63,531 nt of DNA from an uncultured Alphaproteobacteria bacterium (GTDB taxonomy: Bacteria; Pseudomonadota; Alphaproteobacteria; RF32; CAG-239): contig CAMOYJ010000001.1 in assembly GCA_946629975.1 (NCBI GenBank), positions 1 to 63,531 on the forward strand, in the 5' to 3' direction. Both the position numbers and the translations under genes were made by a program. Below the pieces are notes generated by a model. That model ran no database searches. It was not told the origin of the DNA and saw nothing but the letters and a program-made list of their open reading frames with translations. Numbering within the stretch: position 1 is the stretch's first letter; each line of letters begins with the position of its first letter. This document shows positions 6,733-50,993 of this stretch, one piece after another.

Positions 6733-7008
6733 TTGACATTTGATGAAAAATCATCCATAATTAAAAACGGATATGAGATTTGCTTGTATCAAGTGCCTTT
6801 AAGGTGCGGAGCTTTAAAACGGCTTATACAGTATGCAGTGATGGATAACACTGTGATAAGTGTTGTTTTTTTATAACACGATTATCCCCGATAAGAGTCG
6901 GGGAGCTTATAACGGATGTTCAAGGTTTTTCCTAAAGGTTATAAGAGTCATTTCGTACTGTATGATTGTTTTACTCTCCGACCGCTCTTTGTAAGGTGCG
7001 GTTTTTTA
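6733..7008 (+). promoter_or_regulatory. Promoter + structured leader + intrinsic terminator (divergent member of a 3-copy leader family)
   Basis: TTGACA-17-CATAAT promoter (6733-6761). Nested helices 6807-6820/6968-6980 and 6826-6834/6955-6963. Hairpin tccccga/tcgggga (6885-6904). accgc/gcggt stem plus T-run at 6981-7007. SD and ATG follow at 7029. Confidence 0.45.
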
Positions 7009-7028: not shown

Positions 7029-7649
7029 ATGATAAAAATAAAAGAAAACGGCAGAAGTATGGTTGAAATGTTAGGGGTGCTTGCAATTATCGGTGTTTTA
7101 AGCGCCGGTGCTTTGGCAGGTTTTAGTCATGCGATGAAAAAACATAAGATGAACCAATTGATTTCTGACTTAGAAACAATGGTAGAAGGATTATCAGAAT
7201 ATAAAGATGAGTTTGGGCAGCAAGGTAACGGAAATGAACAATTTGTGTTGTCGCAATATGTTAGACGATTTAATTTGCTGCCACAAAATTGGAAGACGGA
7301 TGGATATTATTTTTTTGATCTTTTTAATAACAAAATATTATTTTTTGCAAGAAGTTCGCGCTTAAGTATTGATTATTCCAATACGAGTGAAGTCAAAACA
7401 ATTTGTTCGGATTTAGTCATGGGTTTTGGCAAACCAAACAGCCATGCTTTATACCTTCTTCGCGTATGGCGACAGGCTGACGAAAACGGTGAAAATCAAG
7501 GTAATTCAGAAGTATATTATGGTGATAAAGTTTGCAATGACTCTAAAATCTGTATCAAAGATATGACAGCAACAGATGCGGCAGAAATGTGCCGGACATG
7601 TAATGAGGGCAGAACATGTGTTTTGGTTTTTGAGTTTTTGCCATACTAA
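7029..7649 (+). CDS. Prepilin-type N-terminal cleavage/methylation-domain protein (type IV pilin / pseudopilin-like)
   Basis: MIKIKENG|RSMVEMLGVLAIIGVLSAGALAGF is a class III signal, with Gly at -1, Glu at +5 and a hydrophobic helix. Six Cys in the C-terminal part. The start was moved from 6966 to the ATG at 7029, downstream of the terminator. Confidence 0.65.
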   Translation: MIKIKENGRSMVEMLGVLAIIGVLSAGALAGFSHAMKKHKMNQLISDLETMVEGLSEYKDEFGQQGNGNEQFVLSQYVRRFNLLPQNWKTDGYYFFDLFNNKILFFARSSRLSIDYSNTSEVKTICSDLVMGFGKPNSHALYLLRVWRQADENGENQGNSEVYYGDKVCNDSKICIKDMTATDAAEMCRTCNEGRTCVLVFEFLPY

Positions 7650-19559: not shown

Positions 19560-19635
19560 AGGGGCATAGTTCAGTTGGTAGAACATCGGTCTCCAAAACC
19601 GAGTGTCGTGGGTTCAAGTCCTGCTGCCCCTGCCA
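19560..19635 (+). tRNA. trnW: tRNA-Trp (anticodon CCA), CCA end encoded
   Basis: 76-nt cloverleaf: acceptor aggggca/tgcccct, D arm gttc/gaac, anticodon arm tcggt-ctCCAaa-accga, T loop ttcaagt. Classic position upstream of secE-nusG. Confidence 0.9.
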
Positions 19636-29284: not shown

Positions 29285-30677
29285 GATTATTGTTTTTTGT
29301 CTTGTGTTTATGGCTTCTTGCACGGTTGGGCCCGATTTTGAAAGAAGAGATGTTTATAAAGATCGGCAAATTGCCGAGAGCCTTCAACTCACGGGAAGAG
29401 ATTTGAAGATTGACCCGTGTTGGTATCAAGATTTCAAAGATGAGAGCCTAAATGCGCTGATAAACAAAAGCCTTTCAAACAACACCTCTGTTTTAAGCGG
29501 CATTGAGCGCTTAAAACAAGCGCGGACATCGGTCAAAATTGCAAGAGCCGAATATTTGCCGAAATTAAACACTTCGGCAGGGTATGATTATGCAAGGGCG
29601 AGCGAAAACATCGGACTTTCCGCCGACACAAACTATTTTTCTTTAGGCTTTGATGCTAATTGGGAGATAGATATTTGGGGCGCGGGCAGGCGCTTAAACG
29701 AAAAAACGACTGCACAATTTTGGCAAAGCTACTATAATTTGCAAAACATTAAGGCTTTGATTGCAGCCGAAACGGCAAGCACCTATTTTGCACTCAAAAC
29801 GGCTCAGGAAAAATGGCGCATTTCGAAAGCAAATCTTGCCTTGCAACAAGATATTTTTAAAACGGTTGAGGCAAAATATCAGGCAGGTTTGGCAGACCTT
29901 GCAAGCTATAATCAAAGCAAATATGTTGTCAACAAAACAAAGGCCTTAATTCCGGCCTTGGAGGCTCAAATCAAAGCTTATCAAACGGCACTTGCCGTGC
30001 TCACCGGAACGTTGCCCGACGAGTTGGGTGTTGATTTGAGCTTAAAAAAAGCAAATCCGATTAAAAAAGCTTATCAATACGATATGAAAAAACTTTTTGA
30101 TTTGCCGGCAAATATTATCCGCACGCGTGCCGATGTGAAAGCCGCCGAAAAGGCAATGGTGGCACAAAATGCGGCAATCGGGCAGGCTACTGCGGCCATT
30201 TATCCGAACATATCAATTTCGGGGCTCTTGGGGTTGCAATCAAGCGCCGGTTCAAAACTTTTCAAATCATCAAGCAAGGCATATGGCTACGAGCCCTCCC
30301 TTGTGCAGCCGATTTTTCATTTCGGACAGCTCAAAAACCAAATTGAACTGGAGCGCGAAAAAATGGAAGAAACATATCAAAACTATCGGCAAATTTTGCT
30401 CAATGCTGTCAAAGAACTTGCCGATTCGCTAACAAATTTGCAAAAAGAATATCAAACAAACCGCGCTTCTCAAAACGCGGCACATAGTATGAGAGAAGCG
30501 TTTCAATCTATGAAAGAAAAATATGAAAGCGGGCTGATTGAATATGCCGCGCTTTTGGAAGTTCAGCAGGATTTGCTTGAAGCCGAAACAGATTTGGCGC
30601 AGTCAAACGGCGCAATATATCAAAAAATCATCGCTTTTTATAAGGCAACCGGCGGCGGATATAATGATGAAAAATAA
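29277..30677 (+). CDS. RND efflux outer-membrane factor lipoprotein (NodT family)
   Basis: [14 protein letters not shown]|CTVGPDF lipobox and start motif. The ATG at 29277 overlaps the pump stop. The track start at 29181 lies inside the pump gene. Confidence 0.85.
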
Positions 30678-30680
30678 TGC

Positions 30681-30872
30681 TTGATTTTTTTATCTTAAGG
30701 CTTATGATAAAAAGTGCAGCGAGTTGCTGCGGTGTCTAGTAAACACGGTATATCCGAGAATACTCCTCAATGAAGGGGAGTTCTTGAAATAAGCGTATTT
30801 TATGGCGAATAAAAGAGTCTGTTCTCGGACAGTTTACTAGCTCCCCGTTTTGATTTTTCAAAGCGGTTTTTT
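30681..30872 (+). promoter_or_regulatory. Promoter + structured leader + intrinsic terminator (leader family member A)
   Basis: TTGATT-16-TATGAT promoter. Hairpin gcagc-gagtt-gctgc. Nested helices 30736-44/30832-40 and 30753-60/30822-29. Hairpin 30762-68/30775-81. Terminator 30845-30872 (9 bp plus T6) lies 30 nt before the OMP start. Confidence 0.55.
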
Positions 30873-30902
30873 AATTAATATTCTAAAGAAAGGACTCTTC
30901 TC

Positions 30903-31613
30903 ATGAAAAAAACATTACTACTTGCATCTGTGATTTCTTCTTTTGCATTTTGTGCACAGGCGCAATATTATCAACAACCTCGAACAAGAACTATTACAAG
31001 GACGGTATATCAGAACCCATATCAACCTCAACCGCAAAATATGGCACCATATCAACAAGCACAGTATTCAAGTCCATTTTATTTTCAACCCTATTTAGGC
31101 GTCGATTACAGTTATAATATTGTTGATTTTGGGAGCGATGAGGACGGCGATTCGCTTGACAGTTATTATAATGATAAGCTTCATACCGGTATTTTGTCTT
31201 TAGGTGCTAAAGTTCATGATAATTTTGCTTTAGAAGCCTATTATAAAAAATCAACCAAAGCCAAAAAAACTAATTCTACGCTTTTTACTGTGCCAGTGAC
31301 AACGGAACTTGAATTACAATCTTTCGGTGTTGATGCCATTTTTCACTCACCACGTTTAGGCTATGATAACAGGGTGGAATTAATTGGATCTGTTGGTGTC
31401 GCTTGGTATGAACTTAAAGTAAAAATGAATGCTTCAAGCCTTGGTTCTGCAAGTGGTAAAGATAATCATATCGGTTTTCGTGCTGGCGCAGGTTTTCAAT
31501 ATTACCTTAATGATAATGTCGCATTGCGATTGATGGGACACTATAATAATACAGGTATTGATGATGCCGAAAATTTGTACGATATAACAGCCGGTGTAAG
31601 ATTATATTTCTAA
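30903..31613 (+). CDS. Outer-membrane beta-barrel protein (OmpA-like/porin-family barrel) with a Gln/Pro/Tyr-rich N-terminal region
   Basis: Signal peptide (…CAQAQ), alternating beta-strand pattern, and a C-terminal GVRLYF. Confidence 0.7.
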   Translation: MKKTLLLASVISSFAFCAQAQYYQQPRTRTITRTVYQNPYQPQPQNMAPYQQAQYSSPFYFQPYLGVDYSYNIVDFGSDEDGDSLDSYYNDKLHTGILSLGAKVHDNFALEAYYKKSTKAKKTNSTLFTVPVTTELELQSFGVDAIFHSPRLGYDNRVELIGSVGVAWYELKVKMNASSLGSASGKDNHIGFRAGAGFQYYLNDNVALRLMGHYNNTGIDDAENLYDITAGVRLYF

Positions 31614-49926: not shown

Positions 49927-49964
49927 TCAGGTTTTCTTTTCAAAAAGAGAACCTGATTTTTTTT
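49927..49964 (+). terminator. Rho-independent terminator
   Basis: tcaggttttc/gagaacctga hairpin plus T8. Confidence 0.75.
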
Positions 49965-49966
49965 GC

Positions 49967-50157
49967 TTTACAAAATCGAAAATATTATGCATAATTAAAA
50001 ATGTAGCCGAGTTGGCTATGGTGTTCCTAAAACATCTTTTAGCACATCACTCCTTAAAAGGGAGTTGTTGAAATAAGGCATTTGCACGAATAAGACAAAC
50101 TGTGTGCTAACAGTTTTTAGGGCTCCCACTTTGGATTTCTTTCAAGGTGGTTTTTTT
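49967..50157 (+). promoter_or_regulatory. Promoter + structured leader + intrinsic terminator (leader family member B)
   Basis: TTTACA-17-CATAAT promoter. Hairpin tagcc-gagtt-ggcta. Nested helices 50026-33/50113-21 and 50039-46/50103-10. Hairpin 50049-53/50061-65. Terminator 50126-50157 (8 bp plus T7) lies 30 nt before the LRR gene start. Confidence 0.55.
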
Positions 50158-50186: not shown

Positions 50187-50993
50187 ATGAAGAGGTTTTT
50201 TTTAAGTTTAATAATAATGGTGAGCCCATTTATTGCAAATGCTGAAATAGCAAGCGGAAATGATTGTGGCAAAGAATGTTCATGGAGCATATCAGATGAT
50301 GGCACTTTAACAATATTAGGCAAAGGAGATATGAAAAACTGGAGTGCCTCTCAAACACCGTGGGCTGCATATGCGTCAAAGGTAAACAGCATTAAGGTTG
50401 GTGAAGGTATTACATCGATTGGCAACTGGGCATTTTTTGTTTTTCATGCATCAGAAATCAGTTTGCCGAATACATTAACTTCTATTGGGGCAAGCGCAAT
50501 TACATGGATGGATAATCTTAAAGAGCTTCACCTTCCAGATTCGCTGCTCTATGTTGGTAATGGTGCATTTTATGGACTTACAGAACTTGAAAATATTGTT
50601 ATCCCAGATTCTGTTATTTCAATCGGTGCTGATGCATTTGGCAGAGATTATAAATTAAAAAGTATTACCATTGGCGATAAAACAATTTTAGAAGGAGATC
50701 CATTTAAAGATCCAACTGACGATAGAGTATATACCGGTGGACAAGCTCAAGGGGGAACGGTTGTTTTTTGCACAGGGCAAATCAGTCAATGTAAAGATAA
50801 TTTTGGAGATTATAGAGATAAAGTTCAAGAGGCAAATAAAAAAACGATTAATGGTGTGACATATGTTTATGATAAAAACGGTAATTTGGTTGTTAAAGAT
50901 GGAAAAAGGTTTGAAAAACGCATTTATACCGTTGAAGAAGCGGCAGCGGTGAGTAAACCGACAGGAAATACTTTCAAACTACGTTACAAATAA
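50187..50993 (+). CDS. Secreted leucine-rich-repeat protein (BspA-type LRR)
   Basis: Signal peptide (…FIANAE). Repeats of the type (I/L)P(D/N)(S/T)(L/V)xxIGxxAF. Confidence 0.7.
   Translation: MKRFFLSLIIMVSPFIANAEIASGNDCGKECSWSISDDGTLTILGKGDMKNWSASQTPWAAYASKVNSIKVGEGITSIGNWAFFVFHASEISLPNTLTSIGASAITWMDNLKELHLPDSLLYVGNGAFYGLTELENIVIPDSVISIGADAFGRDYKLKSITIGDKTILEGDPFKDPTDDRVYTGGQAQGGTVVFCTGQISQCKDNFGDYRDKVQEANKKTINGVTYVYDKNGNLVVKDGKRFEKRIYTVEEAAAVSKPTGNTFKLRYK

Follow-up and report, generated by a model that had tools for sequence, protein, structure and literature searches.

In OFF-type transcriptional riboswitches and PyrR-type attenuators, the core of the leader RNA holds the antiterminator strand so that an intrinsic terminator forms shortly before the coding region, and the mutually exclusive pairings are both conserved. 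The leader RNAs described here appear alike in both respects. They were found in a 63,531-nucleotide stretch of DNA (the window) from an uncultured Alphaproteobacteria bacterium (GTDB lineage RF32; CAG-239; assembly GCA_946629975.1, contig CAMOYJ010000001.1, positions 1 to 63,531), and the one of main concern, copy A, occupies positions 30681-30872 of the forward strand (within the annotated region 30681-30902), the strand that also carries copies B and C and the genes after all three, directly upstream of a gene for a beta-barrel outer-membrane protein (OMP). A first-pass annotation of this DNA had read a promoter, a conserved junction fold and a terminator platform at this site and proposed an attenuating leader of no known class, a proposal that is now supported by the lack of an Rfam match, strong covariation and a conserved alternative pairing. 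We consider that the leader probably attenuates transcription in cis, as a riboswitch or under the control of a protein, and governs the surface proteome. As judged by sequence comparison, the family to which it belongs is a genuine and apparently undescribed group of cis-regulatory leader RNAs, in which a known kind of mechanism would be carried by a new fold.

Searches of the window by pattern, nhmmer and covariance model agree on exactly three leader copies. All three had been given the same architecture in the annotation, which holds for copy B (49967-50157): it is of the same short type as copy A, and the two can be aligned over their full length with different helix sequences. Copy C (6733-7007), however, is longer, has a different core, and represents a distinct longer subtype rather than a diverged copy of A. 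For the short type (~160 nucleotides, nt), a covariance model was built from three sequences, using the fold proposed in the annotation together with an additional helix, P4. It recovers 17 copies at E ≤ 2e-17 with no others below E = 0.1, and 15 distinct copies were found; copy B scores 85.4 bits (E = 1e-20) against the short-type model R1. For the long type (~245 nt), an exact-pattern scan of the copy C core over 185,579 species genomes gave 60 loci in 22 metagenome-assembled genomes (MAGs), with at least 18 loci in RGIG5118 and at least 10 in RUG11221, all of these counts being lower bounds. All 60 loci lie in uncultured MAGs from gut, rumen or faeces, which carry the labels Alphaproteobacteria, proteobacterium or Rhodospirillales. 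The short type is present in the same genomes and also in six JGI metagenome contigs, while 10 of the 16 metagenome matches to the short-type pattern were rejected as chance, lying in unrelated sequence. Neither type was found in IMG/VR. A mobile or viral repeat was rejected on this ground and because the differences between copies are compensatory and the copies are not near-identical.

The two types cannot be joined into one family by sequence, as the short-type model reaches at best 13 bits (E = 0.5) on long-type copies. An architecture common to both has been argued from topology only, with Ha corresponding to H2, GGUG to GGAG, short P1 to long PK2, short P2 to long P1, and P4 to P7, while H6 is the same in both. 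The distribution of the leaders among related genomes also connects the two types. Among the OMP homologues and contigs that we examined, close relatives of the copy A OMP gene carry the same short leader, and orthologues further removed, which share its gene neighbourhood, have a copy C-like leader instead. An orthologous gene is preceded by a short leader in one lineage and by a long one in another, and the two types therefore appear to be functionally interchangeable.

Covariation across the short type carries the structural argument. In the covariance-model alignment of the 15 distinct copies, pairing holds in 96.8% of cells, and double changes occur at 28 of the 42 pairs. The covariation score is 0.689, compared with 0.23 for shuffles (none of 500 reaches 0.689) and at most 0.118 for slid controls. 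The helices that covary are Ha, P1, P2, P4 and the terminator, while the core of H6 is invariant. Every element listed in the annotation (promoter, hairpin, GGTG, P1, P2, P3, A-rich strings and terminator with T6) was recovered in copy A at its position by sequence reading and scans. Of the outcomes that it had named as refuting, those open to sequence comparison did not arise: there are many additional homologues, covariation is strong and no Rfam family matches. The fold of copy A has an energy of -55.9 kcal/mol (z = -4.65 relative to shuffles), and the corresponding z-scores are -3.6 for copy B and -6.3 for copy C.

A closer look at copy A begins with its putative promoter (30681-30708), in which TTGATT (30681-86) and TATGAT (30703-08) are separated by a 16-nt spacer, with 9 of 12 consensus matches in a scan and by direct reading of the sequence. 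Another promoter-like match (TTTATA-17 nt-TATAAT, 10/12) lies at 30637-30665, in the 3′-terminal part of the OEP gene upstream; the 30681/30703 promoter is preferred because the family-wide spacing between the -10 element and the first hairpin favors it. The efflux OEP gene ends at 30677 and has no separate terminator after it upstream of copy A, unlike the situation at copy B. The 5′ hairpin Ha (GCAGC-GAGTT-GCTGC, 30716-30730) is 100% paired and both sides change in 4 of its 5 pairs. The stem seen in the annotation thus stands, but its GAGTT loop is not conserved family-wide; a pseudoknot from this loop (GAGUU) to ACUC was rejected on the same ground, the loop not being conserved in the 15 copies. 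Next comes S0 (GGUGU, 30731-30735), a Shine-Dalgarno (SD)-like element that is invariant in both short-type alignments inspected (A2 and A5). S0 may pair weakly with GCUCC at 30840-44, a pairing that cannot be checked by covariation because S0 never varies.

Two long-range helices follow, P1 (30736-30744 with 30832-30840), which is 100% paired with double changes at 7 of 9 pairs, and P2 (30753-30760 with 30822-30829), with double changes at 7 of 8 pairs and a compensatory change, G to A with C to U, in the close orthologue L076. Within P2 lie hairpin H6, formed by S1 (ACUCCUC, 30762-30768; core invariant) and S2 (GGGGAGU, 30775-30781), and the P4 domain (30782-30816). H6 is 91.4% paired with a core that never varies. 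In the P4 domain, a helix of 30782-85 with 30813-16, with double changes at 3 of 4 pairs, closes a conserved internal loop of GAAAUAAG (30786-93) and CGAAUAA (30806-12), whose residues are invariant, and the domain is completed by a small variable hairpin. The conserved strings of the annotation, TTGAAATAAG at 30784-93 and CGAATAA at 30806-12, are therefore present, though they belong to an internal loop closed by a covarying 4-base-pair (bp) helix and not simply to an unpaired A-rich stretch. A mini-open reading frame (UUG-AAA-UAA) in the P4 loop was rejected, as its "start" also appears as UCG and ACG, the position belonging to the covarying helix P4. Conserved unpaired residues of the short type are GAAAUAAG/CGAAUAA, GGUGU, ACAC, CUGU and ACAG. 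The fold is thus conserved and covarying in the manner of an aptamer, as is generic to riboswitches, and the P4 domain is a candidate sensor core. Downstream of the core are S3 (GCUCCCC, 30840-30846) and a predicted intrinsic terminator, CCGTTTTGA/TCAAAGCGG followed by T6 (30845-30872), which was found by terminator scan and in the sequence. It consists of a G+C-rich stem then a U-tract, with a 9-bp stem containing 4 GC pairs, a 4-nt loop, and double changes at 7 of the 9 pairs.

The long type is more elaborate. Its nested helices and pseudoknot PK1, taken over 53 distinct copies, are 94.3% paired, with double changes at 27 of 39 pairs. PK1 pairs a GGAUAA loop with UUAUCC, and in PK2 the hairpin H3 loop pairs with the linker that immediately precedes the terminator region. 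For PK2, an uninterrupted Watson-Crick match of 6 nt or more is present in 43 of 45 distinct copies with 24 different linker sequences, compared with a mean run of 3.3 when loops are matched to the linkers of other copies. Unpaired residues conserved in this type are AUGUYCAAG, CUAAAG, GAGUCAU and AUGAUU. A closing helix between S0 and S3 (CGGAG:CUCCG; 91.8% paired, 10 A-C mismatches) is possible, not established. Four long-type copies located before YpsA/SLOG-family genes (L028, L044, L050 and L061) have the H4/H5 region replaced and PK1 altered, with the P7 core, PK2 and switch kept; these may be a third subtype.

Comparison of the sequences suggests a switch common to both types, in which the purine strand S2 (GGGGAG) would pair either with S1, forming H6, or with S3 at the 5′ base of the terminator. 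The annotation had recognized the first of these pairings in copy A (30762-68 with 30775-81, as hairpin P3) but overlooked that 30775-81 can also pair with 30840-46. Across the two types, both pairings are conserved and covary. S2:S3 was proposed unprompted by RNAalifold on the short type (GGGGAGU with GCUCCCC), where 96.2% of this 7-bp antiterminator is paired and two of its pairs change from GC to UA or AU. The last two C residues of S3 (30845-46 in copy A) are also the first 2 nt of the terminator stem, and these same positions covary with the terminator 3′ strand (pairs 160:209 and 161:208). Three-way covariation of S2, S3 and the terminator 3′ strand is a signature of alternative pairing, and therefore argues for a layout of anti-antiterminator (S1:S2), antiterminator (S2:S3) and terminator, which is the arrangement of PyrR/ANTAR-type leaders and, with its mutually exclusive structures, of riboswitch expression platforms. 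The long-type helix between S2 (GGUCGGGGAG) and S3 (CUCUCCGACC) spans 10 bp and is 92.6% paired, with double changes at 5 of 10 pairs. Pair 127:199 (AU 36, UG 6, UA 5, GC 2) supports S2:S3 specifically because it lies outside H6. The long-type S3 overlaps 4 nt of the terminator stem (GACC of GACCGC).

The position of the leaders is equally consistent. A same-strand open reading frame (ORF; at least 50 amino acids) follows nearly all copies that have enough downstream sequence, its start lying mostly ~20-45 nt past the terminator T-run with an SD sequence present. In copy A, the start ATG is at 30903, 30 nt past the T-run, and the gene (30903-31613) encodes a 236-amino-acid beta-barrel OMP with a signal peptide (Pfam OMP_b-brl, E = 5.9e-12). 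Promoter-like sequences recur at the other end: a sigma-70-like promoter is readable in other short-type copies ~6-10 nt upstream of the first hairpin, and 22 of 56 long-type copies score at least 10/12 at a fixed distance, compared with 1 of 44 control windows. An invertible promoter was rejected, since no inverted repeats of ~15 bp or more flank the promoter; the pairs present are short, A/T-rich and due to chance, or are helices of the RNA itself. Among the downstream proteins, a Pfam scan finds LRR_5 (BspA-type leucine-rich repeats, LRR) in 26 of 47, and a motif screen finds signal-peptide-like N-termini in 47 of 64; other families are OMP, pilin-like proteins, GT2 glycosyltransferases, Acyl_transf_3, a Sulfatase-family enzyme, YpsA/SLOG proteins and helix-turn-helix regulators. 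The envelope or surface regulon suggested from three genes in the annotation holds in these larger sets, and the leaders, like riboswitches, lie in the 5′ untranslated region (UTR) before a functionally coherent gene set.

From these elements a mechanism can be proposed. A sigma-70-type promoter of its own would start the RNA, which would fold into a multi-helix core made of Ha, P1, P2, H6 and P4 in the short type, with additional hairpins and two pseudoknots in the long type. With S1:S2 formed (H6, the anti-antiterminator), S3 would be free, the terminator would form and transcription would stop, in copy A 30 nt before the start codon. With S2:S3 formed, 2 nt (short type) or 4 nt (long type) at the base of the terminator would be sequestered, and RNA polymerase would read on into the gene. 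The presumed sensor is the set of conserved unpaired core nucleotides, and a bound effector would lock the fully folded state and favor termination; this direction is inferred because the fully folded, covariation-supported state contains H6. With many copies, the surface proteome (LRR adhesin-like proteins, pilins, OMPs, and envelope glycosyl- and acyl-transferases) would come under one signal. An orthologue of copy A at 7213-7328 of locus L003 has lost the segment equivalent to ~30722-30774 (the 5′ strands of P1 and P2, and S1), with the junction GCAGCG|GGGGAGTT. In this orthologue S2 has no S1 partner, and the model therefore predicts constitutive read-through, although an assembly artefact is possible.

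Several points weigh against an attenuator of this kind. Transcription start, termination and read-through are all predicted from sequence features, and the gene set points to no ligand. Short-type H6 is not proven by covariation because its core never varies, and pairing-specific covariation occurs at few S2:S3 positions only; part of the S2:S3 complementarity could follow from S0 and S2 both being GGRG-like and S1 and S3 both being CYCC-like. The overlap of antiterminator and terminator in the short type is only 2 nt, and the U-tracts of some long-type copies are weak. In nested-structure energy models, the fold with H6 and terminator is favored by 9-17 kcal/mol. In the short type, S2:S3 is also topologically incompatible with P1, and read-through therefore needs kinetic trapping or an active effector. 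For the long type, a 13-nt linker would permit S2:S3 to pair as a pseudoknot while leaving the remaining fold undisturbed, and by our own nearest-neighbor estimate, the tools not scoring pseudoknots, the two states may then be roughly isoenergetic.

As for the effector, a small molecule or ion, as in a riboswitch, is most likely, and a dedicated RNA-binding protein is next most likely. We tentatively put forward a new riboswitch class with two structural subtypes that would respond to a single signal, a small molecule or second messenger that may come from the host or gut, and whose copies, at least 18 per genome, would switch the whole surface proteome of an uncultured alphaproteobacterial clade of gut and rumen. 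Cyclic di-GMP (c-di-GMP) is down-weighted as this effector because no credible GGDEF, EAL, PilZ or HD-GYP motif was found in 522 kb by a crude regex scan of partly sampled genomes. It has also been considered, as a less probable proposal, that the same three-strand cis attenuator responds to a dedicated protein, such as a PyrR-, HutP- or ANTAR-like antiterminator or a specialised NusG paralogue. Anti-antiterminator, antiterminator and terminator logic is typical of protein-controlled leaders, and the regulon consists of surface structures, which in other bacteria are typically under protein antiterminators. The presence of two structurally different leader types on the same kind of genes also fits a protein, and the strong energetic bias to termination makes an active factor attractive. 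However, a ~245-nt fold with two pseudoknots and many invariant junction nucleotides is more elaborate than the known sites of protein-binding attenuators, and no candidate protein gene consistently adjoins the copies, although no systematic search was made.

Two further explanations depart from cis sensing altogether. The terminated RNAs (~160-250 nt) could be multi-copy trans-acting small RNAs (sRNAs) whose exposed CU-rich, anti-SD-like strands pair with the ribosome-binding sites of other mRNAs, the position upstream of genes being secondary. This is improbable, as a same-strand SD sequence and ORF follow nearly every copy, usually 20-45 nt away, whereas the position of a trans-acting sRNA would be independent of its neighbor gene. 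The CU-rich strands also have conserved, covarying intramolecular partners, and a covarying antiterminator would be superfluous for an sRNA gene. Each copy does have its own predicted promoter and terminator, the CUCC/CUCUCC motifs are conserved, and the terminator fold is the thermodynamic ground state; Alphaproteobacteria, moreover, have multi-copy sRNA families with CCUCC motifs. Trans-acting and cis-leader roles are in any case compatible with each other. Very improbable is a constitutive structured 5′ UTR that would stabilize the mRNA or set a fixed, leaky termination without sensing: no effector is known and the terminator fold dominates energetically, yet such a UTR leaves unexplained both a mutually exclusive pairing kept by compensatory change in two structural types and the ~30 invariant unpaired nucleotides. 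The cis-acting attenuator remains the preferred explanation.

The other two copies in the window carry the same kinds of elements. In copy B, the promoter-like sequence is TTTACA-17 nt-TGCATAAT, S1, S2 and S3 lie at 50049-55, 50059-65 and 50122-27, and the predicted terminator is at 50126-50150, followed by T7. An intrinsic terminator at 49929-49966 (caggttttc...gagaacctg followed by T8) closes the Obg-containing unit just before the copy B promoter; the upstream unit already has its terminator, and the one in the leader is therefore a second, dedicated one. The gene after copy B (50187-50993) encodes a BspA-type LRR protein with a signal peptide (Pfam LRR_5, E = 5.5e-20). Copy C has the promoter-like elements TTGACA (6733-38) and CATAAT (6756-61) with a 17-nt spacer, S1 at 6886-91, S2 at 6897-6905, S3 at 6974-82, and, supported by covariation, PK2 (6815-20 with 6968-73) and PK1 (6843-48 with 6882-87). 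Its terminator, read from the sequence, is at 6980-7001 and is followed by T6. The gene after copy C (7029-7649) encodes a pilin-like protein with the N-terminal sequence GRSMVEMLGVLAIIGVLS and a weak Pfam N_methyl match.

Some features of the downstream genes are shared beyond the leaders themselves. Pilin-like proteins with a near-identical N-terminus (GRSMVEMLGVLAIIGVLS) and unrelated C-terminal parts recur after both leader types, at four other copies (L013, L025, L068 and L079) besides copy C. A C-terminal motif of ~25 amino acids, KRIYT(V/I)(E/D)EA...(S)K(P)(T)GNTF(K/R)(L/I)RY(K/R), is present in 23 of 64 leader-controlled proteins, including the LRR protein of copy B (KRIYTVEEA...NTFKLRYK), an RHS-repeat-like 773-amino-acid protein in L033, and genes in L009-L058. 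No Pfam family covers this motif among the top matches, and it may be a new sorting or anchoring signal. Between the terminator and the start codon, loci L019, L033, L036, L052 (RGIG5118) and L056 (UBA3773) carry an extra conserved module of ~70 nt, UUAUCACCCUCUCC...CCUCUCC-UUUUCU-GGGAGAGG...GGGGG. This CU-rich hairpin, whose strands are anti-SD-like, immediately precedes the SD sequence and may be a second, translational layer of control.

If the attenuator model is correct, one RNA device in tens of copies decides the surface proteins of widespread uncultured gut and rumen Alphaproteobacteria, and these leaders are a new class of orphan riboswitch or attenuator whose switch is unusually clear and testable. 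They would provide a handle on the control of adhesins, pili and envelope modification in these host-associated bacteria, as well as a sequence marker with which the surface regulon could be annotated directly. Two subtypes with different cores on one expression platform would also make a natural system for the exchange of sensor domains on a fixed switch.

Searches against described families place the leaders outside those known. With Rfam 15, the whole window gives one tRNA only (19560-19632), the region of copy A, searched at E up to 10, gives a best score of 22 bits where the family's gathering threshold is 57, the region of copy C gives no match, and twenty related loci with ~27 copies give tRNAs only. 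Full-text literature searches found no description of either type. Compared with the OFF-type riboswitches and PyrR attenuators that they resemble, the leaders have no Rfam match, their switch strands are SD-like and anti-SD-like (GGGGAG and CUCC), and they precede surface genes and not those of a metabolic pathway. The c-di-GMP-I (GEMM-I) riboswitch likewise occurs in many copies per genome before pilus, outer-membrane and surface genes, often with a terminator platform. GEMM-I, however, is built of two parallel hairpins with a tetraloop-receptor, whereas the leaders here contain a three-way junction or pseudoknots, and neither the GEMM-I model nor its architecture was matched in the Rfam searches.

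T-box leaders are similar in length (160-250 nt), in their tens of copies per genome, in having variable helices around a conserved core, and in the choice between terminator and antiterminator. The leaders described here lack the T-box sequence, a specifier loop and a match to the family in Rfam, reside in Alphaproteobacteria, and precede genes for surface proteins instead of aminoacyl-tRNA synthetase or amino-acid genes, which sets them apart from T-boxes. The alpha-r14 or "cuckoo" sRNAs with CCUCC motifs are also multi-copy RNAs of Alphaproteobacteria; they carry CU-rich anti-SD-like motifs and have a promoter and terminator of their own. These sRNAs act in trans and are not fixed before genes, whereas the CU-rich strands here pair intramolecularly and the copies, which have no Rfam match, are 5′ leaders. 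Finally, control of read-through encoded in the leader of surface or envelope genes is a property shared with RfaH/ops, LoaP leaders, EAR RNA and Bacteroides UpxY. Such processive-antitermination systems serve long operons through NusG paralogues or modification of RNA polymerase, without a local covarying antiterminator, whereas the targets of the present leaders are mostly single genes, each with one predicted terminator directly upstream.
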